NCBI GenBank assembly: GCA_963667175.2
Contig: CAXXXF010000013.1
Span: 128,001-192,000, forward strand
DNA: 64,000 nt
Direction: 5' to 3'
Source: Candidatus Latescibacterota bacterium
GTDB lineage: Bacteria; Latescibacterota; UBA2968; GCA-2709665
The position numbers were made by a program, and so were the translations under genes. Shown one piece after another: positions 39,847 through 57,177 of this stretch (position 1 is the stretch's first letter; each line of letters starts with the position of its first letter). Below the pieces are notes generated by a model that saw only the letters and a program-made list of their open reading frames with translations, was not told the DNA's origin and made no database searches.

Positions 39847-41106
39847 ATGAATCTTCATTCGATTTTGCAGACCGTCGCTATCGGCCTGCTCGTACTGGCG
39901 TTCGGGGCATTTGTAACCCTTCTGCTTTTCCCCGGCGCCGGGATGCAGATATCCAGACTGCTTGGATTGTATCAGAAGGCCCAGGCGCTTCAGTTCCTGG
40001 GAATCGGCGTTGCGGGTATCCTGGTCGCCTTGAACGCACTGACGTCCTACAGGCGCGCCAGAGCAATGGAGGGGGTCGCAAAGGAACTGGCCGTCGCGTC
40101 GCGCGAACAGGCCCGGGCCGCAACGGAGCAGGCGCGAGCCACCTGCGACGCTGAACTCGGACGGCGGCAGGAACGCCTGCACCAGGGCGTGGAACACCTC
40201 GGGCACGAGTCGGTGGCGGTGCGGCTGGGCGGCGCCTACGAACTCTTCCACCTCGCCGAGGACACTGCGACGCTGCGCCAGACCGTGCTGGACATTCTCT
40301 GCTCACATATCCGCCGCACGACAAACCAGGACACGTACCGGAGTAGGCAGAGGTCAAACCCTTCGGAAGAGGTCCAGAGCCTGCTGACCCTGCTGTTCAC
40401 GTCGCGTCAAGTGATCTGTCAAGGTCTTCGGATCGACCTGCAGGGAAGCTGGCTGAACGGAGCCACGCTTTGCGCCGCGTACCTTTGCGGCGCCAATCTT
40501 TCGGAGGCGAGGCTGAAGGGCGCGGACCTGGTCGGCGCGCAACTCCAGGGCGCCGACCTGTCGTGGGCGCGCCTGCAGGCGTCCGGTCTTACCTGGGCGA
40601 AGTTACAGGGCGCGGACCTGGTTGGGGCGCGACTCGATGCCGCGAGCCTTTCCAGGGCAAATCTCCACGGGGCCGATCTTGCCCGTTCGACGTTGCGCGG
40701 CGCCGTACTATCCCGTACGCATCTCCAGGGCGCGTTTATTGTGGGGGCGAATCTGCAGGGCGCGGACCTCACGGAGGCGCAGTTCCAGGGCGTGAGGAGT
40801 CACGTGGATTACCCCGAATCCTTCGCCCAGCGCGTCACGCAGTCCATCGGCGAAGAGACCGACCTGAGCGGGGCGATTTTCGGAGGCGGATTGAAACCGA
40901 CGGACGTGGAGTCCATTCTTGGCGGGATGTACAGCGACGCGGCAGACGACCTGCGGGAAAAGCTGACGCCCCACGTCGACAAGAGCGTCACGTACGAACT
41001 TCCGGAACACAGCGGCGCGGTCACAGGCGCCTACACGGAAGAAGAAGCCAAAAAGTGGATCGCGGAATACGAGGAGGCCGTGGGGGAGTCGGAGGAAGAA
41101 GGATGA
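39847..41106 (+). CDS. Membrane-anchored pentapeptide-repeat protein (paralogue 1)
   Basis: Two N-terminal hydrophobic segments, VEHLGHESVAVRLGGAYELF, A(D/N)Lxx repeats. Confidence 0.88.
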   Translation: MNLHSILQTVAIGLLVLAFGAFVTLLLFPGAGMQISRLLGLYQKAQALQFLGIGVAGILVALNALTSYRRARAMEGVAKELAVASREQARAATEQARATCDAELGRRQERLHQGVEHLGHESVAVRLGGAYELFHLAEDTATLRQTVLDILCSHIRRTTNQDTYRSRQRSNPSEEVQSLLTLLFTSRQVICQGLRIDLQGSWLNGATLCAAYLCGANLSEARLKGADLVGAQLQGADLSWARLQASGLTWAKLQGADLVGARLDAASLSRANLHGADLARSTLRGAVLSRTHLQGAFIVGANLQGADLTEAQFQGVRSHVDYPESFAQRVTQSIGEETDLSGAIFGGGLKPTDVESILGGMYSDAADDLREKLTPHVDKSVTYELPEHSGAVTGAYTEEEAKKWIAEYEEAVGESEEEG

Positions 41107-41270
41107 TGGCAGATCGAACTCAGCTGGGCCAGGAAATCGAGACCGCACTTGGGGAAGTGCTCGCCCACGTTCGTGGCGAAACAGATCTTCCGTGCCGAAT
41201 CGTGGATGACCCTACCGCGGAACGGATTCGCGCCCTTCGCAACGGAACGCGGGCAGATCATTCGCATTGA
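41103..41270 (+). pseudogene. Truncated XRE/HigA-like antitoxin N-terminus
   Basis: LGQEIETALGEVLAHVRGE...AERIRALR ends just before the expected HTH. Confidence 0.5.
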
Positions 41271-41315
41271 AGCGCTATAACACAACCCGCTTCATTACGT
41301 TTCGGGAAATTCACG

Positions 41316-42824
41316 GTGAGACTTCCTTCTCAAATCAAAGAGAATCCTCTTCTGAGCTTTCTTGTTTTCCTGCTCGTCCTGGGTTTCGGGACATTCATGG
41401 GTGTCCTGTTTTGCGATGGTTTTCAAAAGTACGTTTCTTCGCGGCTTGACATATGGGAGAAATCCGAGGTTCTCCAATTTATCGGATTTGCCATGGGCGG
41501 AATCCTGATCGCCGTGCAAGCCCTGATGTCATACAAGCGCGCCACGGCATTGGAGGATACCGCGAGAGCCCAGGCCGATGCGGCGAACGCACAAGCGGAT
41601 GCGGCGAACACGCAGGCCAGAGCCACGGAGGAGCAGGCAAAAGCCAACCAGCACACCGAGCAAGGACAGCGACAGGAACGCCTGAAAAACGCCATCGAAC
41701 ACCTGGGGCATGAATCGGATTCCGTGCGACTGGGAGGTGCATACGAACTGTTCCATCTGGCGGAAGACACGAAATCGATGTGTCAGACGGTACTGGACAT
41801 TCTCTGCGCTCACATCCGGCGGACGACAGGCGAAAGGAAGTATCGGGAAGAGTACAAGTCTAATCCGTCGGAAGAAATCCAGAGCATTCTGAGCATGTTG
41901 TTTGTTCAGGAGCATGATGTATTTGAAGATTTGCCGATAGACTTGAGGGGAAGTTGGCTAACAGGGGCTGAGCTTCGGAACGCACGATTAAGAGCGGCTA
42001 TTCTACGAGAAGTGAATTTGCAAAAGGCCGATCTTATCGGTGCCCACTTGGAAAGGGCTGTTTTGGCGAGGGCGCAGTTGCAAGGGGCGATTCTTCAAGG
42101 TGCACACATGCAGGAAGCAAAGCTTCATAGTGCAACTCTGATCGGGGCGAACTTCAATGATGTAAATCTGCAAGGCGCAACCCTGGCGGATGCGCATCTC
42201 GAACGGACAGACCTTCGGATGGTACATTTGGAAGCAGCGGATTTTGACGGTGCATTCTTGACGGGGTCTAACCTCAGCCATGCGTACATGCAAGAAGCCC
42301 TGCTTTCCGGTGCGGACCTAAAAGGTGCGAATTTACAGGGTGCACGCCTTCACGGAACACATCTTAATGACGCACACCTGCAAGGGGCAAACCTCCGACA
42401 CGCGCGGCTTTACGGGGCTCATCTCAACGGCGCACACCTACAAGGGGCATGTGTTTCAGAAGCTCATTTTAATTATGCCGTTCTTGACAGAGCAGACCTT
42501 CGTGGCGTCAGATGCAAGGGGTGTTTACCTGCTATATTCGCGCAACGAATAATGCAGGTAGTAGACAGCGAAAGTGATTTGTCGACAGCAATATTCGCCG
42601 GTGGGTTAACGAACGAGGATTTGGATTCCATTGGAGAAGGTGTGTTCAGCGAATCAGCAAATGCGCTGCGTGAAGTGTTGGCATCTCATATTTGTCAACC
42701 AATACGTCATAGCCCACTGAAGGATAGCGGCACGATTACCGGTTCCTACACACAAGAAGAAGCCGAGAAATGGATCGCGGAATACCAGGAGGCGACGGCG
42801 GCGGAGTCGGAGGAGGATGGCTGA
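41316..42824 (+). CDS. Membrane-anchored pentapeptide-repeat protein (paralogue 2, longer repeat tract)
   Basis: IEHLGHESDSVRLGGAYELF, long A(H/D/N)LxG tract; C-terminus similar to paralogue 1. Confidence 0.88.
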   Translation: MRLPSQIKENPLLSFLVFLLVLGFGTFMGVLFCDGFQKYVSSRLDIWEKSEVLQFIGFAMGGILIAVQALMSYKRATALEDTARAQADAANAQADAANTQARATEEQAKANQHTEQGQRQERLKNAIEHLGHESDSVRLGGAYELFHLAEDTKSMCQTVLDILCAHIRRTTGERKYREEYKSNPSEEIQSILSMLFVQEHDVFEDLPIDLRGSWLTGAELRNARLRAAILREVNLQKADLIGAHLERAVLARAQLQGAILQGAHMQEAKLHSATLIGANFNDVNLQGATLADAHLERTDLRMVHLEAADFDGAFLTGSNLSHAYMQEALLSGADLKGANLQGARLHGTHLNDAHLQGANLRHARLYGAHLNGAHLQGACVSEAHFNYAVLDRADLRGVRCKGCLPAIFAQRIMQVVDSESDLSTAIFAGGLTNEDLDSIGEGVFSESANALREVLASHICQPIRHSPLKDSGTITGSYTQEEAEKWIAEYQEATAAESEEDG

Positions 42825-42926
42825 GACGAGACGCCGTCACCATAGTCGTAGGGTTTTTGGCAGAGGAGACGGCAGGCAGGACCGCGGCGTTTTTTCAAGG
42901 AAACTGAAACGAACGAGGATAGAGGA

Positions 42927-43247
42927 ATGGCTTCGAAGGAGATCCTCGAGCAAGTACGTCTCGCCGCGTCTCACCGCATTCTATTTCTCCCCCATGCCGT
43001 TCGCCAGATGGCAAGGCCAGACAGAATGATTGCGGCAATTGACATTCGTACCGTTATCATGCACGGGGAGTTAATCGAGGATTATCCCGATGATGTTCGC
43101 GGTCACAGTTGCCTTATTCACGGACAAGGCAGTGACCAGCGAGATATTCACGTAGTCTGCGCTCCGAAAGGAGATTTCGTTGCAGTAATCACTGCGTACC
43201 TGCCCTCAGATGACGAGTGGGAGCAAGACTTGCGGACAAGGAGATGA
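42927..43247 (+). CDS. DUF4258 domain protein (putative toxin)
   Basis: FLPHAVRQM, GELIEDYPDD, SCLIHG, IHVVC, VITAYLP...W. Confidence 0.85.
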   Translation: MASKEILEQVRLAASHRILFLPHAVRQMARPDRMIAAIDIRTVIMHGELIEDYPDDVRGHSCLIHGQGSDQRDIHVVCAPKGDFVAVITAYLPSDDEWEQDLRTRR

Positions 43248-43818: not shown

Positions 43819-44892
43819 ATGGGTAATAATCACGCGACTCCTGCCCAGCAACTCGCAGGCAGAGACCTGCCTAATGGTTGGAAGGTCGGTAAGTTGATTG
43901 AGCGACCAGAAACAGCAACCGGGGGACACTTCTCCACGTCTTACATCGTTCGCTCTGAAACTGGGGAAGAGGCATTTCTCAAGGCAATGGATTACACCAA
44001 AGCGCTTGAGTCACCGGACCCGGCACGGGCACTGCAATTAATGACGGCTGCGTATAACTTCGAACGGGACATACTAGAAAAATGTAAATCAAAACACCTA
44101 TCTCGCATTGTTAGAGTTCTTGACTACGGAACGCTCCCGTCCCAAAAGGGTAATCCAAGTAGCGTGGTCCAGTATCTGATTTTCGAATTGGCAAAACACG
44201 ACATTCGGTCATTCGTAGGTTGGGAGCGAAATTTCGATACAGCTTGGTCATTGCGTACGATGCATCAGGCAACAGCGGCATTGCAGCAACTTCACTCTTT
44301 GGAAATAGCCCATCAAGATCTAAAACCGTCGAACGTTCTGATTTTTGAAGATGACCAATCAAAGTTGGCAGATTTGGGACGAGCATTTGATCGCCACAGC
44401 AGGTCGCCTCATGACGAGTCAGCCTGCGCGGGTGATTTAACCTATGCGCCGCCGGAGCTATTATATAGCCATGTTCCAGCAGACTGGAGGGTTCGTCGGT
44501 TAGGATGCGACCTGTACCTATTGGGCAGTCTTGTAGTGTTCTTTTGCACGGGAGTATCCCTGACTCACTTGCTTCTTATGAGGCTTGACGAGGAACACCG
44601 ACCCACGAAATGGGGCGGCACGTACAAAGAGGTATTGCCATATCTCCAACATCGTTTAATGCAGATCATTCGGGAGTTACGTGGGATGATTCGGATAGAC
44701 TTCGCTGATGAAATCGCAGATATAGTGAAACAGCTTTGTAATCCTGATCCCACATTGCGGGGCCATCCCAAGAACAACAAATTTAACCGCAACCAGTACT
44801 CTCTCGAGCGGTATGTGTCCATTTTTAACCTTCTCGCCAAGAAGGCAGAATGGTCACTGACGCGTAGAGATCCGATCAGGAGGTCGAACTAG
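43819..44892 (+). CDS. Hanks-type Ser/Thr protein kinase
   Basis: GGHFS loop, AFLK, IAHQDLKPSNVL, LADLG, YAPPE, DLYLLG. Confidence 0.92.
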   Translation: MGNNHATPAQQLAGRDLPNGWKVGKLIERPETATGGHFSTSYIVRSETGEEAFLKAMDYTKALESPDPARALQLMTAAYNFERDILEKCKSKHLSRIVRVLDYGTLPSQKGNPSSVVQYLIFELAKHDIRSFVGWERNFDTAWSLRTMHQATAALQQLHSLEIAHQDLKPSNVLIFEDDQSKLADLGRAFDRHSRSPHDESACAGDLTYAPPELLYSHVPADWRVRRLGCDLYLLGSLVVFFCTGVSLTHLLLMRLDEEHRPTKWGGTYKEVLPYLQHRLMQIIRELRGMIRIDFADEIADIVKQLCNPDPTLRGHPKNNKFNRNQYSLERYVSIFNLLAKKAEWSLTRRDPIRRSN

Positions 44893-44894
44893 CC

Positions 44895-46427
44895 ATGGCC
44901 GGATTTAGTACGGACAAAGACCGGAGAGTCATCCCTCGTTGGAGAACTCTCGACAAGACTATTGTGCTTGGCGAACTCAATTCGGTCGCGCCACCTCTCG
45001 CCTATCAGATGGTTACTGCCGATTCCTTGAAATCAAGAATCATGGATTGGTTGGAACACCAGACGGTAGGCCATGCGGCAGATCTTGTTGGTGCAAGTCT
45101 CACACTCGGTGCAGAAACAGAGGTCGCCAAAGCTGCAAAGTTTCTATTGCAAGACGATCGCAATGCATCGCCGTGGGCTAGAGAGCTTGCAGAGCACGCG
45201 TTAAAGACTACATACATCGATAAGGCAAATCCGATCTCAGCCGTAACTGGAGATGAACTTTCGCAAAATAGCATCGCAACTTTACGTAAACTGCTTCGAA
45301 ACGAACCTAGGGATCCAATCACTTGGGTGGAACTCTCGCGCGCATATACCATTCTTGGGCACGGAAAACAGGCTGAACGAGCTATGACCGTTGCGTTGCA
45401 GCTTGCTTTTGACAACCGTTTCGTTCTTCGTGCCGCGAGTAGGCTCTGGGTACATCGCAAGGATCCGGAGAAAGCGCACGACATAATCGCCAAATCAGAA
45501 AGAACCCCTTTTGATCCGTGGTTGTTGGCTGCCGAGATCGCGATAGGTAGTATTGATGGAAGGAAACCAAGATTCGTTAAGGCTGCACGGCGAATGCTTC
45601 ACGAAAGCCATTTTTCGCGTGTCCACATAAGTGAACTTGCGTCAGCGATAGCCACATTGGAATTCAATCATGGAAACGTAAAAAGATCTCGTCAGCTCTT
45701 TGACCTATCTCTAGAAAATCCGACTGAAAACAGTATTGCTCAAGCCGCTTGGGCATCGAGACAAAACACGTCAATTTGCATCGACGAGGGACATTTGGAT
45801 CGCCCCAATACATTCGAGGCACGCGCTTGGTCATTTTACAATCGAAGTCAGTGGAACCGGGTAATCGAAGAATGCCGGCTGTGGCAGTCAGATCAACCAT
45901 TTTCGAGTCGGCCAAGTGTTCTAGGTTCCTATGTGGCAGCGGTTGCGCTTGAAGATTACGATACGAGTACATCGTTTGCCGAACCCGGTCTAAAGGCTAA
46001 TCCGGCTAATGTCACGTTGCTGAATAACATGGCGTTCGCGTTAATAAACCGTAGCGGGAAGGGTGACATTGACAAAGCGAAAAGAGCGCTTTCGCGAGTG
46101 GATCATTTGCCTGTATCTAAGCAGGAGCGCGTTGCTATTAAAGCGACTCGTGGACTATTGGCGTTCCAGACAGGAGATGTAGCCGAGGGTCATCGAATGT
46201 ATTCGGATGCACGATCGGATGCCCGAAGATTGCAGGATAATAAATTACATGCCTTGGCATCTGCTTTTCATGTCATTGCTGGCTCGTTAGATAGATCCTC
46301 TGACAAAAGTCCCACAGGTTCTGAGCCGTTGGACAGGTTGCGACGCGAGCCCGATCCAATCTTCAGGGTGCTCGAACGCAGGCTTGCTAAGATTAAAATA
46401 AAACCTATTACCAGGAGCAGCAAATAG
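44895..46427 (+). CDS. TPR-like all-helical protein
   Basis: TPR-like segments (ITWVELSRAYTILG...AERAMTVALQLA; GLKANPANVTLLNNMAFAL); starts 2 nt after the kinase stop. Confidence 0.7.
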   Translation: MAGFSTDKDRRVIPRWRTLDKTIVLGELNSVAPPLAYQMVTADSLKSRIMDWLEHQTVGHAADLVGASLTLGAETEVAKAAKFLLQDDRNASPWARELAEHALKTTYIDKANPISAVTGDELSQNSIATLRKLLRNEPRDPITWVELSRAYTILGHGKQAERAMTVALQLAFDNRFVLRAASRLWVHRKDPEKAHDIIAKSERTPFDPWLLAAEIAIGSIDGRKPRFVKAARRMLHESHFSRVHISELASAIATLEFNHGNVKRSRQLFDLSLENPTENSIAQAAWASRQNTSICIDEGHLDRPNTFEARAWSFYNRSQWNRVIEECRLWQSDQPFSSRPSVLGSYVAAVALEDYDTSTSFAEPGLKANPANVTLLNNMAFALINRSGKGDIDKAKRALSRVDHLPVSKQERVAIKATRGLLAFQTGDVAEGHRMYSDARSDARRLQDNKLHALASAFHVIAGSLDRSSDKSPTGSEPLDRLRREPDPIFRVLERRLAKIKIKPITRSSK

Positions 46428-46458: not shown

Positions 46459-47517
<1,059 letters not shown>

Positions 47518-47815
47518 TGTCAGCTTCCGTTTATTTTCATGAATTGCAAATAGTCGACATCCAGGCCCCACCAAGCAAGAGTGGGAGGATGTAAACAATA
47601 CGGTGCTCCCCGTAATAAGTGCGAGACCACGTAATCAACCAATGACCATTGCGGAGTCTACATCGGGTACGAAGCTGACCTCGCTGCAGTAATTGGATCC
47701 CGTTGTACCGATATATTAATGAGACAATTCTCCTTTATAGAGAGAATAATGACGAGGTTGAAGGGGCGCCGACCGAGATACCGCCCGTTACCTATTACGC
47801 CAGATGGAGTGTATT

Positions 47816-48265
47816 ATGGATATGATCAAGATTCTTGCTGGTGGTTTTGTAGGCGCGCTAATTTCCGCGTTTGTCACTTGGCTGATCGCAGCAAAACGTA
47901 CCGTCATCGAGAACATCACTCACGAGCGAGCTAAATGGCGTGAAAAAGTTCGGGAGAGAGCGATGCTCGTTCACGATGCCATGATCAAGAGAAGTGAAGA
48001 AGATCTCGATCGGCATAGAAATGAGTTTCGTGCGCTACTCAATCCGTTCGACTGTGAAGACATGAGCATTATTCGGTGCATTGAACTTCCGAAAAATGGT
48101 GGTGAATTGGTGCACGCTGAGGAATTCGCCGAACGGATAGCGCGACTACTGAAGCACGACTGGGAACGAGCAAAACGTGAAGCCAAAACTTTCTCCTTCC
48201 TCCGACGCAAGCCGAAACTCAAACCCTACCGCGTGTGCTGTTGCCGTTCTACGCGGGGCAGGTGA
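47816..48265 (+). CDS. Small hypothetical protein with N-terminal TM helix; 3' end runs into mod
   Basis: Hydrophobic N-terminus, NITHERAKWRE, LLKHDWERAK; GGAG RBS. Confidence 0.65.
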   Translation: MDMIKILAGGFVGALISAFVTWLIAAKRTVIENITHERAKWREKVRERAMLVHDAMIKRSEEDLDRHRNEFRALLNPFDCEDMSIIRCIELPKNGGELVHAEEFAERIARLLKHDWERAKREAKTFSFLRRKPKLKPYRVCCCRSTRGR

Positions 48266-49635
48266 AGTGCATCTATATCGATCCGCCGTACAACACGCGT
48301 TCGGCCTTTGAGCATTATGACGACAACCTCGAACACACGAAATGGTTGGCGATGATGTGGCCGCGCCTTGAACTCCTGCGCGACTTGCTGGCGGAGGACG
48401 GTTCGATTTGGGTGTCGATTGACGACAACGAGGCGCACTATCTCAAGATCATTATGGACGAAGTATTCGGAAGAAGGAATTTCGTGGCAAACGTGTTTTG
48501 GCAGAAGACCCACACACGAGAGAATCGAACGGATGTATCGGCTGTACATGACCATATAATACTTTTCGCACGCGACCGGGATGCTTGGAAGGAAGTTCGA
48601 AATGTCCTTCCTGCGTCAGAGAGTCAACTTGAAAGATTCACAAATCCAGATAATGACCCAAGAGGTTCTTGGTCTTCGCTTCCAGCCCATGCAAAGGCTG
48701 AGAAGGGCCGCAGAAAGGAACAGTTTTTCACAGTGACTACCCCAACAGGACGTACGGTTAATCCCCCTCCGGGCCGATGCTGGCTATATACGGAAGAGCG
48801 ATTTGCAGAAATGGTTGCAGACAACCGTATATGGTTTGGAACTGAAGGCACTAACGTCCCCCGGGTAAAGAAATTCCTGTCGGAAGTTCAACAAGGACTC
48901 GTTCCATCTACACTCTGGCTTTACAGAGACGTCGGTACGACTGGAGAAGCAAAAAGTGAAACCACGGGCCTGTTTCCTGGAGAGATACCTTTTTCAACCC
49001 CGAAACCGGAACGTCTGCTTCAACGAATCCTTCATATCGCTACCAATCCAGGCGATCTCGTCCTCGATTCCTTCCTCGGCTCCGGCACGACCGCAGCGGT
49101 GGCGCACAAGATGGGTCGGCGGTACATTGGCATAGAAATGGGTCAACACGCGGTGACACATTGTGTTCCGCGTTTGAGGAAAGTGATCGACGGCGAACAG
49201 GGCGGCATCTCAAAGCTTGTAAATTGGCAGGGCGGTGGTGGATTTCGCTTCTATCGGCTCGGTCCGCCCGTCTTCGACGAGGACGGGCACATTCGATCGG
49301 ATATCCGCTTTTCCGTGCTGGCCGCACATGTCTATTTCAGCGAGACCGGGCGTCCTTGGCGCGGCAACGACGATTCGCCACTCCTCGGTCTGCACGAGGG
49401 GCGCGCCTACGCGCTACTGTACAACGGCATCCTCGGCGACGGGCAACCGGGCCCCGGCAATGTCTTGACCCGAAGGACTCTGACGATGATTCGTCGAGAG
49501 ATTGCGCGAAAGGATGCGGGTTTCGACGGTCCAGTGACCATCTACGGCGAACAGTCGCGCTTATCGCCTTCAACTCTCGATCGTGAGGGCATCGTTTACA
49601 AGCAGACACCTTATGACGTCAAAGTGAGTCGATGA
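48235..49635 (+). CDS. mod: Type III R-M methyltransferase Mod, apparently 5'-truncated
   Basis: CIYIDPPYN, FSTPKPERLL, DSFLGSGTTAAVA; begins at LLPFYAG without the preceding GDNL segment or an RBS. Confidence 0.85.
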   Translation: MLLPFYAGQVKCIYIDPPYNTRSAFEHYDDNLEHTKWLAMMWPRLELLRDLLAEDGSIWVSIDDNEAHYLKIIMDEVFGRRNFVANVFWQKTHTRENRTDVSAVHDHIILFARDRDAWKEVRNVLPASESQLERFTNPDNDPRGSWSSLPAHAKAEKGRRKEQFFTVTTPTGRTVNPPPGRCWLYTEERFAEMVADNRIWFGTEGTNVPRVKKFLSEVQQGLVPSTLWLYRDVGTTGEAKSETTGLFPGEIPFSTPKPERLLQRILHIATNPGDLVLDSFLGSGTTAAVAHKMGRRYIGIEMGQHAVTHCVPRLRKVIDGEQGGISKLVNWQGGGGFRFYRLGPPVFDEDGHIRSDIRFSVLAAHVYFSETGRPWRGNDDSPLLGLHEGRAYALLYNGILGDGQPGPGNVLTRRTLTMIRREIARKDAGFDGPVTIYGEQSRLSPSTLDREGIVYKQTPYDVKVSR

Positions 49636-49675
49636 ACCTGCGGAATGCGTCAGCATGTGGGTGTAATCCTACGTC

Positions 49676-51073
49676 GTGCTGTCATTTACGGAGGAGCATT
49701 CACGAGGAGAATGGACGATCGATAGTGAAACATCGCGCATCCGCGACCCGGTCCATGGGCTAATTGTGTTCGGGGACCGAAATGACAAAGCCCGAAACGA
49801 GACGGATGACATCGCCTGGCGTCTGCTCAATACGCCCGAGTTTCAGCGATTGCGCCGAATCCGCCACTTGGGTTTCTCCGACCTGGTATATCCCGGCGCG
49901 ACGCATAGCCGATTTGCACACGCGGTCGGCGTCTATCACACAGCACGTCTGCTCATTGAAGTGATCAGGCGCCGCCTGAAGAACCGTGAGTTTGACAAGG
50001 AACGAGCAACGGTTGCGCTGTTGGCAGCGCTTCTGCACGATATCGGGCATGGGCCTCTGAGTCACGTCTTCGAACAAGCGTCTCAGGCCACGGGCGGTAC
50101 AAAACGCCATGAAGACTGGAGTGCGGAGATCCTCCAGGGAGATACGGAGGTCAACAGCATATTACAGGAGGTGGACAAGGGGTTACCGAGAGAAATTAGC
50201 GCGGTTATTAAGGAGGAAGAGCCGAAGGACATCTACGCCACTGTGGTTTCCAGTCAGTTCGACGCCGACCGACTCGACTACCTGCAGCGGGACCGCCTGA
50301 TGACCGGTGTCGAGTTCGCGCATCTCGATCGTGACTGGCTGTTCGACTGCCTGGAGGTCGGCTCGGTCACAATAGATGAGGATGCGCCGGTAAGGGTACC
50401 CTGTCTATATCTCAATCTCAAGGGTCTGCAAGTGGCGGAGGAATATCTGGAGGCCCGTTTCCGCCTCTACAAGGCGGTCTATATGCACAAGACCACACGG
50501 GCCGCCGAGAAGATGCTTGGCTCTATGCTAAAAACCTTCACGCTGGATTATCGAGACAGCCAACTGGCACAGCAAGAGCCATTATTGCGGTATTTTGTGG
50601 ACGAATCGCCGTCGTTGGGTTCGTATCTCGAACTCGACGATGCGTCGGTTTGGACCACCCTGGCGACTCTTGCTGCTTCATCCGACACTCACGTCGCTGA
50701 GTTAGCAAGCCGTCTGCGCGAACGCCGTCTATACAAGTGCCTGGACGTCGGAATGCAGGCGCAGGACGAAGCACAAGGCAATCTATTCCTCCGCTTCCGG
50801 CGAGAATTGAGGTATCGTTACCTGGGCTTCGACAGCCTTCTGTTCGACGACGCGCCGGTCACGCTATACGACTGGTACAGTTTCGAGGATTCCTCTGCAC
50901 TCAATAAAATACTCGTCAAGACGCGCGCCGAAGATCACGAACCAAAGGACATCGCCAACGTGTCGAGCATTGTACCTGCGCTTCGAGACGCGGAGCGTAT
51001 TCAGCGGGTTTACGCCCCGTGCCAACGCCAAATAGAAGAAATCACTCGCATTATGGAGGAGATCAATAAATGA
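49676..51073 (+). CDS. HD-domain phosphohydrolase, SAMHD1/YwfO-like dNTP triphosphohydrolase; start uncertain
   Basis: IRDPVHG, FQRLRRI, PGATHSRFAH, LLHDIGHGPLSH, DADRLDY, VYMHKT. Confidence 0.88.
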   Translation: MLSFTEEHSRGEWTIDSETSRIRDPVHGLIVFGDRNDKARNETDDIAWRLLNTPEFQRLRRIRHLGFSDLVYPGATHSRFAHAVGVYHTARLLIEVIRRRLKNREFDKERATVALLAALLHDIGHGPLSHVFEQASQATGGTKRHEDWSAEILQGDTEVNSILQEVDKGLPREISAVIKEEEPKDIYATVVSSQFDADRLDYLQRDRLMTGVEFAHLDRDWLFDCLEVGSVTIDEDAPVRVPCLYLNLKGLQVAEEYLEARFRLYKAVYMHKTTRAAEKMLGSMLKTFTLDYRDSQLAQQEPLLRYFVDESPSLGSYLELDDASVWTTLATLAASSDTHVAELASRLRERRLYKCLDVGMQAQDEAQGNLFLRFRRELRYRYLGFDSLLFDDAPVTLYDWYSFEDSSALNKILVKTRAEDHEPKDIANVSSIVPALRDAERIQRVYAPCQRQIEEITRIMEEINK

Positions 51074-51603
51074 ACGCGAAAGACGTCGTAGTCGACATAG
51101 TTAAACTGAGCGGTCACGAATTGAACGGCCAGACCCGGCTGCAGAGGGAAGCCTACCTGCTGGATCGCTGCGGGGCGAAATTCGGGATCTCGTTCTTCTA
51201 CTACCATCACGGTCCGTATTCCTTCGAGCTAGCGGATGGATGGGCCGACGCAAAAGCCGAAGATCGGATTGAAATCAAGCAAAAGCTCGGCCGGTACGAT
51301 GTCTCATACTTGAGTTTCAAGAAGAAAGCGGCCGATGCCCATCCGGAAAACCTGGGCGAACTTTCAGCCGCCGATGCTCGGGAACGACTACAGAAAATGG
51401 CGCAGGTATCAGACGTCGTTTTGGAACTCGCCGCTACTATCGTATTTCTGAAGGAAAATGGTTATAGTGAGCGGCCAATTGAAGAGTTGAAAATGCGCAA
51501 GCCTATCAAAGCCGCGGGTGGTCGGACCGAGAAAGCCAGGGCTCTTCTCTGCGACCTCGGCCTCAAAAGTGAAGCGACGCTTTCAGAGTCGGCTGCGATT
51601 TAG
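51070..51603 (+). CDS. YwgA-like (winged-helix; DUF4065-related) protein
   Basis: GQTRLQREAYLL, FFYYHHGPYSFEL, LELAAT; ATGA overlap with the HD gene. Confidence 0.65.
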   Translation: MNAKDVVVDIVKLSGHELNGQTRLQREAYLLDRCGAKFGISFFYYHHGPYSFELADGWADAKAEDRIEIKQKLGRYDVSYLSFKKKAADAHPENLGELSAADARERLQKMAQVSDVVLELAATIVFLKENGYSERPIEELKMRKPIKAAGGRTEKARALLCDLGLKSEATLSESAAI

Positions 51604-51625
51604 ATAGGATTTCAGGAACTGATCC

Positions 51626-54271
51626 ATGCAACTCAAACAATTCCAGATAGATACTCTCTCAGTCCTGCGCCGGTTTTTTGAGGAGGCACGAATCGCCGGG
51701 CCGAAGAACGCCTATGAAGCGATAACGACGGAACCGGAGCAGGCCGCGCGGCTTGGCGGATATTGCGCAGAATATATACCCTTGATGGAATTGCCTGACG
51801 TTCCGTATATCTGCCTGCGCCTGCCCACGGGCGGTGGCAAGACCATCCTGGCTGCGCATTCCGTTTCCGTTGCCCAGGGCGCATGGATTGAGAAGGACTA
51901 TCCGTTGGTTCTGTGGCTTGTGCCGACGAATACGATCCGTCGGCAGACGGTCGACGCGCTGAAGAACACGCGCCACGGTTATCGGCAGGTGCTGGACGAG
52001 GCATTTGAGGGGCGAGTGCGAATATTTGACATCTCAGATTTCACGTATATCCGCCCTCACGACCTGAGAGACCGGTGCTGCATTGTGGTGGGTACGATCC
52101 AGACGTTGAGGGTGAGAAGCACCGAGGGCCGCAAGGTCTACGCGCACAGCGAAGAAATGGAACCCCACTTCGCCAGGGCGCCGATGAAGGCGCCTGGTCT
52201 GGAGTTGCTGAATAACGGAACGGCCAAATACTCCTTTGCCAACCTGCTGCATCTGCATCGCCCGCTGATGGTGGTCGACGAGGCGCACAACGCCGTGACC
52301 GGGCTCACCAGGGAGATGCAGGCGCGAGTAAACCCATGCGGTATTATCGAGTTTACCGCTACGCCACGGACAAGATCAAACATTCTGCACAGCGTTTCCG
52401 CGCTCGAACTCAAGCGTGAGGAGATGATCAAGTTGCCGATCGCACTTTCCGAGTGCGACACGTGGCAGAGCGCCGTTAACGGCGCAGTGGCCGCCCGTGC
52501 CGCGTTGTCGGAAAAAGCCCGGGATGACTCCGCCTACGTCCGTCCAATCGTTCTCTTACAGGCGCAGGCGAGAAATCAGGACGTGCCGGTTCAGGCGTTG
52601 AAAGCGCATTTGATTGACGTCGAGCAGGTAACTGAAGAGAAGATCGCTGTGGCGACCGGCGATCAGCGGCAGCTCGACGGTATAGACCTATTCGACCGGG
52701 CTTGCCCTATCGAGTACGTCATTACGGTCGAGGCGCTCAAGGAAGGGTGGGACTGTTCGTTTGCGTACGTTTTCTGCTCTGTCTCGCGCATTCAGAGCGC
52801 GAAAGACGTGGAGCAGTTACTCGGTCGCGTGCTTCGAATGCCTTACGCGAAAAGGCGAGAGGTTGCAGATCTCAATAAGGCTTATGCCTTCCTTTCCGAA
52901 CCGTCTTTTGGACAGGCTGCGCGTGGGCTTGCTGACAAGCTTGTGGCCATGGGCTTTGAGGAAGACGAGGCTTTGGAAAATATCGAGCATGTTCAGCGCA
53001 CGTTCGACGATGAGGGTGACCTGTATCGCACACGGGACAAGCAGGATCCGATATTTGCCCACGAGGTCACAGCGACTACCGAGGTCTTGTATGCACTCAA
53101 GGAGGTCAACCACGAGAGATTGCTGGTGCGCGAAACGGCTGAGGGGAAGGTCGAAATCGCGATAGCGGGCTGGATCAACGAGAGCAGCGAGAAGGCCATT
53201 TGGGAGACGTTGCCTGCGCCGGAGAGAAAGCCTTTCGCCAATGCCGTTGCGAAATATCGCGTCAACGTCAAGGATCAAGTCGCACCCGCCGAACAGGGCC
53301 TGGAATTCCAGGTTCCGCGTTTAATGTCGGAAATTCAGGGGACGCATGAATTCGCCGATGCCGACGTGTTCATGGAATATAACGAATGGTCGTTGCTCAA
53401 CCATTCTCCAAAGATTGATGAGCACGAGTTTTCGATCCATGAGACTGCCCGCAGCTTCGAGATCGACCTGGACGGTAAGCGCGTTACCTACCGTTTCGCC
53501 AGCACGGAGGAACAAATGACGCTGAACGTCGACGTGGAAGGTTGGACACCGGAAGCACTCGTCCTGTGGCTCGACCGAAAGGTGCGCCAGGTGGATATTC
53601 ATCAGCGCGAACTATTAAGATGGCTGCGCGATTTGGTTGGCCATCTGCTTAACGTACGCGGCATGGGCATCTCTGCGCTGATGCGCTGCAAATTTCTGCT
53701 TGCCAGGAAGATTCAGGACAAGATCAACGGTATTCGCAAGATGGAACGGGACGCCGTATACCAGCGTTACCTATTCGCGCCCGGGTCTGGAGTATCGGTA
53801 TCGTTCGATAACGCCTTTTCGTTCCAAGCCGGTATGTACCGGGATCAAAGAAATTATCGCGGGCGCTGGAAACCACGAAAGCACTACTTGGGTTCAGATA
53901 ACGTTCCGGCCTTTGACGGCGCTGAAGACGGTGAGGAGGTTCAGTGCGCTCAGGTAATCGACAGCCTCCCGGAAGTCGCATACTGGATTCGCAACGTGGC
54001 GCGTCATCCGAGTTCGTTCTGGTTGCCGACTGCGACGGGTAAGTTCTATCCAGACTTCGTAGCGCAAATGTCGGATAGCCGCCTCTTTGTGGTCGAATAC
54101 AAAGGCGCGCATATTGCTGATGGGCCGGATACCGCTGAAAAGCGCACGATTGGCGCCCTATGGGAGAAAGCGAGCGAGGGGAAGGGTCTTTTTATCGTCG
54201 CTGAGAAAACCGTCGACGGGAGCGACGTTCGAGAGCAACTGACGCAGAAAATCCGCAGTTTCAGATATTAG
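51626..54271 (+). CDS. res: Type III restriction enzyme Res subunit (SF2 helicase + PD-(D/E)xK)
   Basis: PTGGGKT, VDEAH, FTATP, LKEGWD, QLLGRVLR, YPDF...VEYKG. Confidence 0.9.
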   Translation: MQLKQFQIDTLSVLRRFFEEARIAGPKNAYEAITTEPEQAARLGGYCAEYIPLMELPDVPYICLRLPTGGGKTILAAHSVSVAQGAWIEKDYPLVLWLVPTNTIRRQTVDALKNTRHGYRQVLDEAFEGRVRIFDISDFTYIRPHDLRDRCCIVVGTIQTLRVRSTEGRKVYAHSEEMEPHFARAPMKAPGLELLNNGTAKYSFANLLHLHRPLMVVDEAHNAVTGLTREMQARVNPCGIIEFTATPRTRSNILHSVSALELKREEMIKLPIALSECDTWQSAVNGAVAARAALSEKARDDSAYVRPIVLLQAQARNQDVPVQALKAHLIDVEQVTEEKIAVATGDQRQLDGIDLFDRACPIEYVITVEALKEGWDCSFAYVFCSVSRIQSAKDVEQLLGRVLRMPYAKRREVADLNKAYAFLSEPSFGQAARGLADKLVAMGFEEDEALENIEHVQRTFDDEGDLYRTRDKQDPIFAHEVTATTEVLYALKEVNHERLLVRETAEGKVEIAIAGWINESSEKAIWETLPAPERKPFANAVAKYRVNVKDQVAPAEQGLEFQVPRLMSEIQGTHEFADADVFMEYNEWSLLNHSPKIDEHEFSIHETARSFEIDLDGKRVTYRFASTEEQMTLNVDVEGWTPEALVLWLDRKVRQVDIHQRELLRWLRDLVGHLLNVRGMGISALMRCKFLLARKIQDKINGIRKMERDAVYQRYLFAPGSGVSVSFDNAFSFQAGMYRDQRNYRGRWKPRKHYLGSDNVPAFDGAEDGEEVQCAQVIDSLPEVAYWIRNVARHPSSFWLPTATGKFYPDFVAQMSDSRLFVVEYKGAHIADGPDTAEKRTIGALWEKASEGKGLFIVAEKTVDGSDVREQLTQKIRSFRY

Positions 54272-54303: not shown

Positions 54304-57177
54304 CTACCTCGGCGCCAGATATCGATCTCCATTGAAGTGAATCATGTGATCCGGTATTTCGGATAACCAGACTTCCGTCTGCCAAGCGATTTCGGTGATG
54401 AAATCCTTGAAGATGTTGAAGTCCGGGAATGCACTCACGTAAACTCGGGTGGCAGGACAATCTCCAAACATCTCCTCGAGTTCGACGTGGCGTTTCGGAG
54501 AAACCGGACCGTGGGATGTGACGGCTTCGATCAAGTACAGTCGACTCTGATTTTCTCCATAAAGTACGATATCCGGCAATTTGTCGTGACTGGGAACAGG
54601 TAGACCAAGCCCGTCGAAACCTTTTTCATTGAGGATCAACGACTTATTTTCTGCATCGCCAAGATAGAGAAGCTGGGCGCCGGGGGCGAATCTTGGCCCG
54701 AATTCCTCAACAACGGCGGCCTGTAATTCGTTGTGTTGCCCGGGCGAGAGGTGAAATTCCTCGCCAGTTGGCAGTTGTAAAGGCACTCTGTGCTGATCTC
54801 GGCGTTTCTGATAGACTTCGAAGAGTGCGCCCTTTACCTCGTTGAAGGATGCGATTGCCTGTTGCCACATCTCGGTACCGTACGCGCTAATTGTCCGAAT
54901 CGCGGATTCAGATAGTGTGTAATGGGTGCGCGGACTGTTTGTCGGGAGGGACACGTCATCAGGGTTTCGAATTACGAGACCTGCCTGCTCGAATTGATGA
55001 ATGACCCGGCGACGAATGGTCTCTCGCGTATTCTCCGCGTATTCGCGATCGTATCTGTCCCTGATTTCTTCCAATACGTCGTGAATCCGCAAACTACGGG
55101 ATCTCGCTTCAGCCCAGGGGGTATCTTCAGAAAGTTGCGCAAGGACAAGCAATGTCAGAGCCGACGTTTCGTTTTGTTGTGCGGGTGGCAGCCCTAAGGA
55201 TTTCAATACCTCTTGAGCCTCCTGTATTCTTCCGATTGACATACGGGATTCCTTTATTGTAGGGAAATCTCTCGGAATACATCCGGTTTCTCTCAACGTG
55301 GTAAAAACCAGAGCGTCTGAATCCACTCCTTTTTTTGATTCTTCGACTGACCGATGCCGTTCTCCAATTCGCCTGATGACTTTTCGGGGCGGAAGCGGCA
55401 ATGCGCGCAATTCCATTGCGTTTACCTGGGTGTTTCCACTTGAAATGCGGAAATACCGATCCAATAGCGCGCAATTTAACACGGCTGACAGTCCAAGCGT
55501 TTCTTCGACGTCGAGTTCGCCGTTCTTCCTGTATATGTAATTGAGATGATTCTCAAGCCCGATCCTCTTATGGCTAAATTGGTCTTTCAGTAACGGCGCT
55601 GAAATCAGACGACGTGGTTCTTCCTTTGCGCTAAACCGGCAAAGCAGGACGTAGTTCGAAACCGGGACGGACAGATCCTCAGCGGATTCACCGAGAGAAA
55701 GGCCCTGTGGTTTGGCGCCTTTTAACGCGGGCCATTCAACCTTTCGGCGTCGCACATTGTTCATCCACAGAAGCGGGACCGCGTGGTCGCGTTCAACTGC
55801 GACTTCATCTGTCAGAGACCCTCTGGCACGGAAGCCAACCACCGGACCCGTTGACACTTCCAAACCGTATTTCTGCAGGGTGCCCGGCCAGCGATCCACG
55901 ATTTCGATAACCTGCTCGTCGAACTCGCTCGTGGGCAATCTGAAATTGAGCTTGTTCTTGTACTCCCGTATGAAATGCCTCCGGGTCACCATGCGGGCTA
56001 TCGATTCGCCCAAATCCAGCGCGTTTTTCGATGATGAAATCTTGATAAATGAAGACTCGGGTGCTTTTTCGTCCGGTAATCTTCGGAACGCAACGATAAC
56101 ATTTTCCTGAAGGACGGAATCTTTACCAAATGTGTCGTGGCGCGATTCAAACAAGTGAACAGACACAGGGAGCGTTAGGTCGACAAACTCCCGCCTGAAT
56201 GCGGAAAAGTAAGCGCCCGAACAGAAGCTTCGTGGGACGATAAAACACGCGCATCCCTGAGGCGCAAGCATTCTTGCGGAGAGCGCCATGAACAGTGTAT
56301 AGATATTCGAATGTCCTTTTATCTGGCCTGCTACTGCTTTTACGCGAGGGTCGTTGCTATTCAGTTTGAAATACGGTGGATTCGCGATAATCTTGTCATA
56401 CAGTAATGGCTTTCTCGGATTGACTGGATTGTCGACCTGGAAGAGCGAAGGCTGAGGCGATGGGATGCAATCAACGACAAAATCGCGATTATATACATGT
56501 GCGTGAACGGTAATGCCTCTTTCTTGAGCGCGTCTTGCTGCCCGTTCAAGTGCCGTGCGGGCAACTTCAGACAAGCCCTCGTCGATTTCATATCCGTCGA
56601 TCCATAATTCCATCGGGCGGCCTGCGATTATCGTGCGTTCAATGAGCGCACATGCCAAAACGCCGGAACCAATGGATGGATCGAGCAACCTTTCACCGTC
56701 TCGCACCGGCCCGAGTTGCCCGGCCATAAAGCGGCCAACCAGCTCGGGCGTGAGGAATTGGCCGTTTTGCTTGCGGTGAGCAATAGGCCGTTCTGATAGA
56801 GCGTCTTCACCCAACTTAAGACTGAAATCCACTAAGTCCGGTACTCGATATGCAGGGACGCTTTCTGCGACGGACATCGTCGACACACGGCGCAGGACGG
56901 ATGTGGCAAATTCAGGATCTTTTTTTATAAACTCCCTCATCGAGGTTGTTTGTCTTCCGGACAGAAGCTGCAGTTCCTCCGGATCGCATTTCAGAATCTG
57001 GGTCAGCCGTAAGATTAACGACTCAGATGGCCGGACTTTTCCAGCTTCGATTCGTGACAGGTGAGCCGGGTCGACTCCAATCGCAAACGAGAGTGACCGT
57101 AAGCTGATATTTTCCCTTTCTCTCAGCGAACGCATGTACTGGCCGAATTCCATTCGCATCCTTCGCCTGTAAACCAT
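54304..57177 (-). CDS. Fusion protein: XRE HTH + N6-adenine MTase (PstI/BsuBI-type) + BsuBI/PstI-type restriction endonuclease
   Basis: LRSLS...HLSRIEAG (HTH); GQFLTP, DPSIGSG, IANPPY, RFSAKEE; YAENTRETIRR, HDKLPDIVL, IEAVTSHGPVS, IAWQTEVW; no stop in 957 codons. Confidence 0.9.
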   Translation of the reverse strand: MVYRRRMRMEFGQYMRSLRERENISLRSLSFAIGVDPAHLSRIEAGKVRPSESLILRLTQILKCDPEELQLLSGRQTTSMREFIKKDPEFATSVLRRVSTMSVAESVPAYRVPDLVDFSLKLGEDALSERPIAHRKQNGQFLTPELVGRFMAGQLGPVRDGERLLDPSIGSGVLACALIERTIIAGRPMELWIDGYEIDEGLSEVARTALERAARRAQERGITVHAHVYNRDFVVDCIPSPQPSLFQVDNPVNPRKPLLYDKIIANPPYFKLNSNDPRVKAVAGQIKGHSNIYTLFMALSARMLAPQGCACFIVPRSFCSGAYFSAFRREFVDLTLPVSVHLFESRHDTFGKDSVLQENVIVAFRRLPDEKAPESSFIKISSSKNALDLGESIARMVTRRHFIREYKNKLNFRLPTSEFDEQVIEIVDRWPGTLQKYGLEVSTGPVVGFRARGSLTDEVAVERDHAVPLLWMNNVRRRKVEWPALKGAKPQGLSLGESAEDLSVPVSNYVLLCRFSAKEEPRRLISAPLLKDQFSHKRIGLENHLNYIYRKNGELDVEETLGLSAVLNCALLDRYFRISSGNTQVNAMELRALPLPPRKVIRRIGERHRSVEESKKGVDSDALVFTTLRETGCIPRDFPTIKESRMSIGRIQEAQEVLKSLGLPPAQQNETSALTLLVLAQLSEDTPWAEARSRSLRIHDVLEEIRDRYDREYAENTRETIRRRVIHQFEQAGLVIRNPDDVSLPTNSPRTHYTLSESAIRTISAYGTEMWQQAIASFNEVKGALFEVYQKRRDQHRVPLQLPTGEEFHLSPGQHNELQAAVVEEFGPRFAPGAQLLYLGDAENKSLILNEKGFDGLGLPVPSHDKLPDIVLYGENQSRLYLIEAVTSHGPVSPKRHVELEEMFGDCPATRVYVSAFPDFNIFKDFITEIAWQTEVWLSEIPDHMIHFNGDRYLAPR

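Follow-up and report, generated by a model that had tools for sequence, protein, structure and literature searches.

In a 64,000-nt window of contig CAXXXF010000013.1 (positions 128,001 to 192,000 of the forward strand; coordinates below are positions in this window), four consecutive genes on the plus strand, spanning 48235 to 54271, encode a Type III methyltransferase (mod), an HD-domain hydrolase (the HD gene), a small partner protein, and a Type III restriction subunit (res). A first-pass annotation of the sequence had described this block as a SAMHD1-like HD hydrolase and a YwgA-like partner nested in a restriction-modification (R-M) locus, and had proposed that the pair guards the R-M system by depleting deoxynucleoside triphosphates (dNTPs). 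The gene order was confirmed (Table 1), as was the coupling of the pair, in which the HD stop codon overlaps the partner start codon in the sequence ATGA at 51070-51073. A stretch of approximately 16 kb around the block (roughly 41 to 57.5 kb) has a G+C content of 49-56%, compared with 60-66% outside it. The G+C content at third codon positions (GC3) is 0.45-0.67 in this stretch and 0.76-0.80 in the flanking core genes; the HD gene, the partner gene, and res have values of 0.64, 0.61, and 0.67, respectively. Because the same low-GC stretch holds a PDC-M71A/B pair and a BsuBI/PstI-type R-M fusion, the setting of the four genes is a low-GC defence island.

Table 1. Coordinates of the mod-HD-partner-res block and its features in the window
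Feature	Position	Strand	Description and evidence
mod	48235-49635	+	Type III methyltransferase, 5'-truncated; Pfam N6_N4_Mtase 3.2e-47; PADLOC MTase_III 3.9e-165
HD	49676-51073	+	465-codon open reading frame (ORF); Pfam HD 1.6e-11 and HD_assoc_2 1.2e-10; drawn from GTG 49676
Partner	51070-51603	+	177-codon ORF, YwgA type; no Pfam family
res	51626-54271	+	Full-length Type III restriction subunit; Pfam ResIII 3.1e-14; PADLOC REase_III 8e-171
Insert between mod stop and res start	49636-51625	+	1,990 bp; holds the HD gene and the partner gene
GAGGAG Shine-Dalgarno sequence and ancestral HD start, now ACG	49704-49709; 49715-49717	+	Sequence; homologue alignment

The HD protein is an EF1143/SAMHD1-type enzyme and a putative dNTP triphosphohydrolase. 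Its Pfam HD match lies above the family cut-off, and its HD_assoc_2 (PF19276) match scored 41.6 bits against a cut-off of 23.1. The best solved relative was EF1143 (PDB 2o6i; E 1.1e-43 over residues 46-449), with which the motifs align, and SAMHD1 chains were matched at E values of 5e-18 to 3e-15. An alignment of 13 sequences, consisting of the window protein and 12 homologues that are 61-91% identical, showed that the metal and catalytic residues (H82, H121-D122, H125, H130, D196/D198, and R205-D206) are invariant. The intact catalytic motifs and the SAMHD1-like character reported at first pass were thus both borne out. EF1143 has been described as a dNTP triphosphohydrolase (PMC3190883). The window protein shares with EF1143 and SAMHD1 the HD family and the catalytic H...HD...D motifs, but it has no SAM domain and is only approximately 30-35% identical, and the Enterococcus-type relatives among the 80 loci described below have no partner gene. 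Membership in the Dgt-type defence dGTPases was not indicated, since the PADLOC dGTPase model matched residues 40-135 only (E 7e-4, 17 bits) and the NCBIfam Dgt-type models gave 18-23 bits against cut-offs of 152-439. A monomer model of the HD protein calculated from the 13-row alignment had a predicted local distance difference test score (pLDDT) of 45 and was unusable. HD matches of 26-41% identity were found in a plasmid collection, and matches of 31-37% identity, mostly in unannotated records, were found in a phage collection. Furthermore, on Roseibium and Rhizobium plasmids (L083, 267-3886; L084, 2622-6413), a four-gene operon encodes, in this order, a radical SAM protein, a 3'-5' exonuclease, an AAA ATPase, and finally an HD homologue with 35% identity. 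Insertion sequence elements lie beside both four-gene operons, and L084 also carries a VapC toxin-antitoxin (TA) pair and an ABC-3C system. This operon may represent another defence-type use of the HD family.

The reading frame of the HD gene is unbroken, and its sole canonical in-frame start is GTG 49676. The Met start of all 12 aligned homologues falls on T14 of the window ORF, which is encoded by the ACG codon listed in Table 1, and the Shine-Dalgarno sequence lies 5 nt upstream of this codon. Among the 120 homologues listed, one of which is the window's own, 10 residues precede the DPVHG motif in 72 and 12 residues precede it in 22, and the motif is absent in nine; the window ORF has 23 residues before it. 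Judged from the homologues, the usual ATG of the HD gene is ACG in the window. The first-pass annotation had correctly noted that GTG 49725 is out of frame, but the doubt it derived from this about the HD start did not hold. The continuous frame, together with the Met column of the homologues, which places the ancestral start at 49715, makes a frameshift in the A-run at 49728-49730 unnecessary and GTG 49725 irrelevant; such a frameshift was accordingly rejected.

The partner belongs to a YwgA-type family, which was defined by alignment as a stand-alone protein of approximately 165-180 residues encoded directly downstream of a COG1078-type HD gene. The window partner fits this definition and shares the family motifs RxQK, YGP(Y/F)S, and LE(L)A as well as the invariant residues Q25, G48, L54, L118, and E119. 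The family contained 5,723 representatives at an E-value threshold of 1e-3 and 2,017 at a threshold of 1e-10; of the 150 best, almost all are stand-alone proteins of 160-190 residues. An AlphaFold2 (AF2) model of the 177-residue partner (pLDDT 89.2) consists of a winged helix and a helical bundle. Its best Foldseek match was 7yk3_B, the C-terminal domain of DarG (DarG-C) bound to DarT (template modelling (TM) score 0.59/0.56; E 2.6e-3), and the same chain was found when the family profile was compared with the PDB (0.0023). In addition, the C-terminal part of the DarG model was matched by 25 of 25 family members (best E values, 3.6e-10 for NCBIfam and 4.1e-12 for PADLOC), at scores far below the family cut-off (20.1 bits versus 250 for the window protein). 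Sequence profiles and predicted fold both identify the partner as a homologue of DarG-C, the domain with which DarG binds DarT. The order of the pair, an effector gene followed by an overlapping binder gene, presumably matches that of darT-darG; DarTG differs in that neither a macrodomain nor DarT is present here, and the upstream gene encodes an HD hydrolase as the candidate toxin.

The C-terminal domain of DarG binds and inhibits DarT, and DUF4065 proteins are stated to be homologous to it (PMC13621843). Homology to a toxin-binding domain fits the earlier suggestion that the HD enzyme is restrained by its small partner. In contrast, the link to DUF4065/Panacea drawn at first pass did not survive a direct comparison, in which Pfam PF13274 matched none of 25 family members at E values of up to 1. 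What connects the two is the statement cited above and a weak lead, namely one Atlas cluster near the partner in which 13% of the members carry PF13274. The partner therefore resembles the type II antitoxin PanA (Panacea, DUF4065) as a small stand-alone protein beside a potentially toxic enzyme, and differs from it in the absence of a PF13274 match, the relationship being indirect. The Panacea paper (PMC8832971) does not mention a toxin with an HD domain in its main text; its supplementary toxin-cluster datasets lie outside that check. No match to the partner was found in the plasmid collection or in the phage collection, and comparison of its fold with viral structures gave only weak matches, to uncharacterised archaeal-virus proteins.

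Complex prediction for the HD protein and the partner gave a median score of 0.40 (0.81, 0.00, and 0.40 in three runs), and the best of three controls scored 0.00. The runs agreed in at least 23% of contacts, with a partner pLDDT of at least 76. Of 157 solved complexes, 116 reached the mark used for such predictions, as did two of 215 mismatched pairs; scores of up to 0.60 accounted for only 18 of these solved complexes but for both of the mismatches that passed. Because this weak prediction coincides with conserved translational coupling and with homology to a toxin-binding domain, the partner is likely to bind the HD protein directly.

Residues 2-464 of the truncated mod product match positions 53-541 of the 542-position PADLOC MTase_III profile, and its alignment with a 551-residue plasmid homologue (L081) begins at residue 52 of the latter, opposite the first codon of the window ORF. 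The Mod protein is thus missing approximately 51 N-terminal residues, including the conserved stretch before DPPY, a defect that the first-pass annotation had overlooked. Mod retains DPPY, an FxGxG-type motif, and a GTG start; a stop codon lies 18 codons upstream of this GTG in the same frame, and more stops occur farther upstream. The Res subunit of this Type III system is complete, in that residues 2-872 match positions 3-890 of the 898-position PADLOC REase_III profile and homologues of 876-886 residues cover 99-100% of it. The res gene has its own ribosome-binding site, AGGAA, and the C-terminal stretch YPDF...VVEYK of its product is present, which we take to be a PD...ExK nuclease motif. 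Type III Res depends on Mod, and mod is truncated; the Type III R-M system may therefore be inactive in this genome. The copy of this R-M system on a Sphingomonas naphthae plasmid (L082, 4752-7497) is also broken, with mod divided into two coding sequences and res cut to 1,497 nt, so that the window is not the only place where this R-M family has decayed. Immediately upstream of mod in the window lies a 153-codon plus-strand gene (47804-48265), the last 31 nt of which extend over the mod start. Its product has a hydrophobic N-terminus and no family match, and Atlas clusters of 'hypothetical proteins' score 0.96 against it. It is probably a real gene and may be part of whatever replaced the 5' end of mod.

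In both plasmid relatives that were opened (L081, CP115967.1; L082, NZ_CP117412.1), the mod stop and the res start overlap in TGATG. The window Res is 51% identical to that of CP115967.1 and 64% identical over the first half to that of NZ_CP117412.1. Since mod and res abut in these relatives, the HD-partner pair in the window is an insert. No meaningful direct or inverted repeats were found flanking 49636-51625. No terminator-like site was found on the plus strand inside this segment, which makes co-transcription of the pair with mod and res plausible.

A scan of species-representative genomes yielded 80 loci with HD relatives of 30-62% identity, only two of which exceeded 45%. A partner homologue was located immediately downstream on the same strand in 13 of the 80 loci; it was absent in 64, and three were too short to tell. 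The distance from the HD stop to the partner start was between -29 and +27 nt in all 13 loci, and the 4-nt overlap of the window recurs in four of them. These 13 loci represent six phyla (Bacillota, with Bacillaceae included, Planctomycetota, Pseudomonadota, Rhodothermota, Fidelibacterota, and that of a Nitrosopumilus archaeon). On these comparisons, the HD protein and the partner form an old, tightly coupled pair.

The neighbours of the 13 pairs were examined by searching 114 ORFs with Pfam, and the same 114 plus five of L002 with PADLOC. In Bacillus alkalicola (L013), the pair adjoins genes for YwhD, a class A penicillin-binding protein, speE, and speB, which we take to be the ywfO-ywgA neighbourhood of Bacillus subtilis; the name YwgA-like given to the partner at first pass is in keeping with this. 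Through L013, the window pair resembles the B. subtilis-type ywfO-ywgA pair in its two families, their order, and their tight linkage. It differs in that it is only 18-31% identical to Bacillota pairs, and in that the Bacillus copy is chromosomal and housekeeping, not in an R-M locus or an island. In the closest pair, that of a Rhodothermales metagenome-assembled genome (MAG; L001, 13372-21117), an MgsA-type AAA gene lies directly downstream and is followed by genes for a HipA_C kinase and a HIRAN protein (PDC-M03A/B; 1.4e-79 and 8.7e-74) and for a 1,652-residue DruE-type helicase (Druantia, 1,949 bits), the last beside a gene for a 341-residue protein without an assigned family. Both PDC-M03A/B and DruE are located within 5 kb of the pair. 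In a Desulfitobacterium MAG (L014, 961-2304), the HD gene is divided between two ORFs (961-1629 and 1651-2304) and the partner is intact; this pair is adjoined by an ADP-ribosylglycohydrolase gene and a UvrD-like helicase fragment.

A quick tree with Shimodaira-Hasegawa-like approximate likelihood-ratio test (SH-aLRT) support was calculated from 80 rows, comprising the window and 79 loci; L014, with its split HD gene, was left out. The window grouped with L001 (Rhodothermales) and L002 (Alphaproteobacteria) in a clade with a support of 99. This clade lies inside a nine-row clade, also with a support of 99, in which the partner is present in seven rows, could not be judged in one, and is absent in L002. 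At least 4-6 gains or losses are needed to explain the presence of the partner on the tree. The close clade of the window crosses phyla at approximately 60-65% identity, and two of its three loci (the window and L001) lie among defence genes; L002 lies at the edge of a stretch of short ORFs, beside metabolic genes. Phylogenetically, then, the pair appears as an old and mostly housekeeping one, within which there is a phylum-crossing, horizontally moving clade. Near-identical (99%) copies of HD and the partner were found in other assemblies.

Based on these results, our preferred explanation, to which we give roughly even confidence, is that the pair is an autonomous module of a dNTPase and its regulator, which a defence island has captured, and not a dedicated guard of the R-M system. 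The HD enzyme would hydrolyse dNTPs to deoxynucleosides and triphosphate, and the translationally coupled partner would bind it through the DarG-C-like domain and restrain it, acting as an inhibitor or regulator in the manner of an antitoxin. Once the partner was lost or displaced, the enzyme would be free to deplete dNTPs. The window copy, derived from the horizontally moving clade, would have entered the locus as a block of 1,990 bp, precisely where mod meets res, and there it is probably co-transcribed with mod and res. Its nesting would be opportunistic, reflecting either defence-island clustering or operon hitch-hiking. In the mobile clade, a TA-like nucleotide-depleting defence is possible, and the housekeeping copies may just tune dNTP pools. 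The homologies, the intact motifs, the conserved coupling, the geometry of the insert, the genomic contexts, the mod truncation, and the changed HD start are direct observations, and from them we infer dNTPase activity, physical binding, its inhibitory direction, and the defence role.

Several observations weigh against this explanation. The partner is absent from 64 of the 77 loci with enough downstream sequence, which indicates that the HD enzyme does not need one, and it is absent from L002 within the close clade itself. The neighbours of the 13 pairs are mostly housekeeping or unclassified genes: uvrB immediately precedes the pair in L004 and L008, L003 has smc as a neighbour, and L033 has his genes. 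Of these loci, only L001 has clear defence neighbours, and in L039 a SoFic gene lies approximately 5 kb away. The first-pass annotation had itself named a mostly housekeeping setting of the homologues as telling against its proposal, and for the wider family such a setting was found at most partner-bearing loci. The N-terminal half of the partner is a winged helix that poorly resembles PadR-type regulators (TM approximately 0.3), and one of the three complex-prediction runs scored 0.00, so that the support from this source is weak. Finally, since the usual HD start is ACG and mod is truncated, function of the block in this genome is uncertain.

The last of these points leads to the possibility that the mod-HD-partner-res block is a decaying relic with no current function in this genome, which we regard as rather unlikely though the best placed of the alternatives. 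Both the truncation of mod and the replacement of ATG by ACG point to weakening or decay, and the cassette may indeed be weakened or decaying here. In favour of a relic are the loss of the N-terminal residues of Mod and of the usual HD ATG, a group II intron remnant approximately 750 bp upstream of the mod ORF, and the broken R-M copy in the plasmid relative L082. However, the frames of HD, the partner, and res are open over their full lengths and their motifs are intact, the in-frame GTG 49676 can still start the HD gene, mod, though truncated, still has a GTG start and its two catalytic motifs, and the 99% copies of HD and the partner in other assemblies also argue against a relic.

It is unlikely that the pair is a housekeeping one, consisting of a dNTP-pool or house-cleaning triphosphohydrolase and an accessory subunit, which reached the island by chance and plays no part in defence. 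Most of the partner-bearing loci, among uvrB, smc, his, and speE/speB genes, would suit such a function, as would conservation of the pair in Bacillus and an archaeon and the merely partial match of the PADLOC defence dGTPase model (E 7e-4, residues 40-135). YwfO has been discussed as a candidate house-cleaning pyrophosphohydrolase (PMC4993169). Against this stand the close clade, which crosses phyla at approximately 60-65% identity with two of three loci among defence genes, and the GC3 of 0.45-0.67 in the island versus 0.76-0.80 in the core genes. In addition, the partner is homologous to an antitoxin domain, and related HD genes occur in other defence-like plasmid operons.

A bolder reading, in which the mobile YwfO/YwgA-type clade is a TA-like nucleotide-depletion defence, appears doubtful. 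It would have a DarG-C/Panacea-like clamp hold a SAMHD1-like dNTPase until infection removes the clamp, and the nesting between mod and res would make it a second line, expressed together with the R-M genes and triggered when a phage evades restriction. If the clamp were confirmed, it would give the housekeeping YwfO-YwgA pairs their first mechanism, that of a dNTPase controlled by a protein inhibitor.

The guard originally proposed would work in the manner of PrrC: Mod/Res would silence the dNTPase, with or without the partner, and a phage anti-restriction protein that disables restriction would release the HD enzyme, so that dNTP depletion would serve as a second line of defence. The pair lies exactly between mod and res, the insert has no terminator-like site on the plus strand, and GC3 is similar across HD, the partner, and res; PrrC provides the precedent of an effector encoded inside an R-M locus, to which prrC is described as 'always linked' (PMC3458546). 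With PrrC in the EcoprrI Type Ic system, the window pair has in common an effector gene nested between R-M genes, but effector chemistry and R-M type differ. The constant R-M linkage of PrrC fails here and disfavours a PrrC-like dependence, because homologues of the window mod or res were found in none of the 80 HD loci, 13 of which have the partner (tblastn, E 1e-3). Among the 120 res homologues listed, only four have a longest contig identical in size to that of a listed HD or partner homologue (2,380,734, 255,283, 5,545,486, and 1,779,616 bp). These coincidences suggest that res and HD or the partner co-occur in a few genomes, without implying adjacency, and hint at a recurring combination in which adjacency was not seen. 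Moreover, among the matches listed, the two nearest res homologues (89% and 88%) lie on contigs that do not correspond to those of the nearest HD and partner homologues (91% and 89%). The pair also includes a candidate regulator of its own and is found by itself in different phyla, the window mod is truncated, and the usual HD start is lost. An obligate R-M guard is therefore unlikely, and we consider a PrrC-like guard of any kind quite improbable.

Equally improbable is that the partner acts on the operon itself, as an autoregulatory winged-helix transcription factor, and does not inhibit the enzyme: the AF2 model does begin with a winged-helix-like unit, lower Foldseek matches include PadR/VanR-type regulators, and weak Pfam matches to HTH_45 and EarA were each found in two of 25 family members, but the PadR/VanR fold matches are poor (TM approximately 0.3 versus 0.59 for DarG-C), DarG-C was matched by all 25 members, the partner gene is downstream and translationally coupled in an order that we take to be that of darT-darG, and HD binding is predicted, if weakly supported, with controls at 0.00.

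The enzyme family and defence by dNTP depletion are already known. Depletion of dNTPs acts as a bacterial defence (10.1101/2021.04.26.441389); the window pair shares this concept with the single-gene dGTPase systems and differs from them in its weak and partial match to the PADLOC dGTPase model (7e-4). In Clover, an antiviral dNTPase (CloA) is restrained by the product of a neighbouring gene (PMC12265719). The likeness is again one of concept, since CloB is a nucleotidyltransferase that makes an inhibitory nucleotide, whereas the partner has no nucleotidyltransferase or other Pfam domain and folds as a winged helix and a helical bundle. Literature searches returned no functional data on YwgA, judged by titles and the beginnings of abstracts, and only passing mentions of YwfO; a search for DUF4065 with an HD domain gave only RSH toxins. 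These searches brought up no experiment on the pair and no paper describing an HD dNTPase that is accompanied by a DarG-C-like protein or lies within a Type III R-M locus; the datasets of PMC8832971 could bear on this. The YwgA-type partner, its DarG-C homology, and the pairing of a dNTPase with such a protein were thus not found in print, and the arrangement nested in a Type III locus is an unusual variant.

Depletion of dNTPs is an antiviral strategy common to animals (SAMHD1) and bacteria (dGTPase and Clover), and how such enzymes are restrained is a live question. If the proposed role of the partner is correct, a DarG/Panacea-related protein inhibitor would be a third mode of restraint, beside allostery and the nucleotide signal of CloB. 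Several thousand uncharacterised YwgA-like proteins, among them those of the Bacillus and archaeal pairs, would also gain their first functional hypothesis. The R-M guard would be the more surprising claim, and the comparative data do not favour it.

The remainder of the island contains further defence-type and mobile features. No tRNA genes were found in the window, and no integrase was found among the ORFs scanned with family models. At 54304-57177 on the minus strand, convergent with res, a 957-residue fusion protein combines helix-turn-helix, N6-adenine methylase (Eco57I/N6_Mtase), and BsuBI/PstI endonuclease domains (2.3e-55 and 2.4e-41 for the last); in PADLOC it matches MTase_II (9.5e-162) and REase_II (1.5e-103). 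Upstream of mod, the intron remnant occupies 46459-47491 on the minus strand, with a D1-D4 model match at 47353-47491 (100.7 bits, E 8e-22) and a domain V/VI model match at 46459-46606 (46.5 bits). As these matches are only approximately 1 kb apart, the intron is ORF-less or degraded, and a 196-codon plus-strand ORF lying over it (46868-47458) is probably spurious. Farther upstream, plus-strand genes at 43819-46427 encode a kinase (357 residues) and a tetratricopeptide repeat protein (510 residues) that are full-length matches to the PADLOC candidates PDC-M71A (5.8e-121) and PDC-M71B (5.3e-137), respectively. At the left edge of the island (39847-43247), two genes for pentapeptide-repeat proteins span the drop in G+C content (GC3 0.76 versus 0.53), and a DUF4258 ORF is located at 42927-43247 (6.3e-21).

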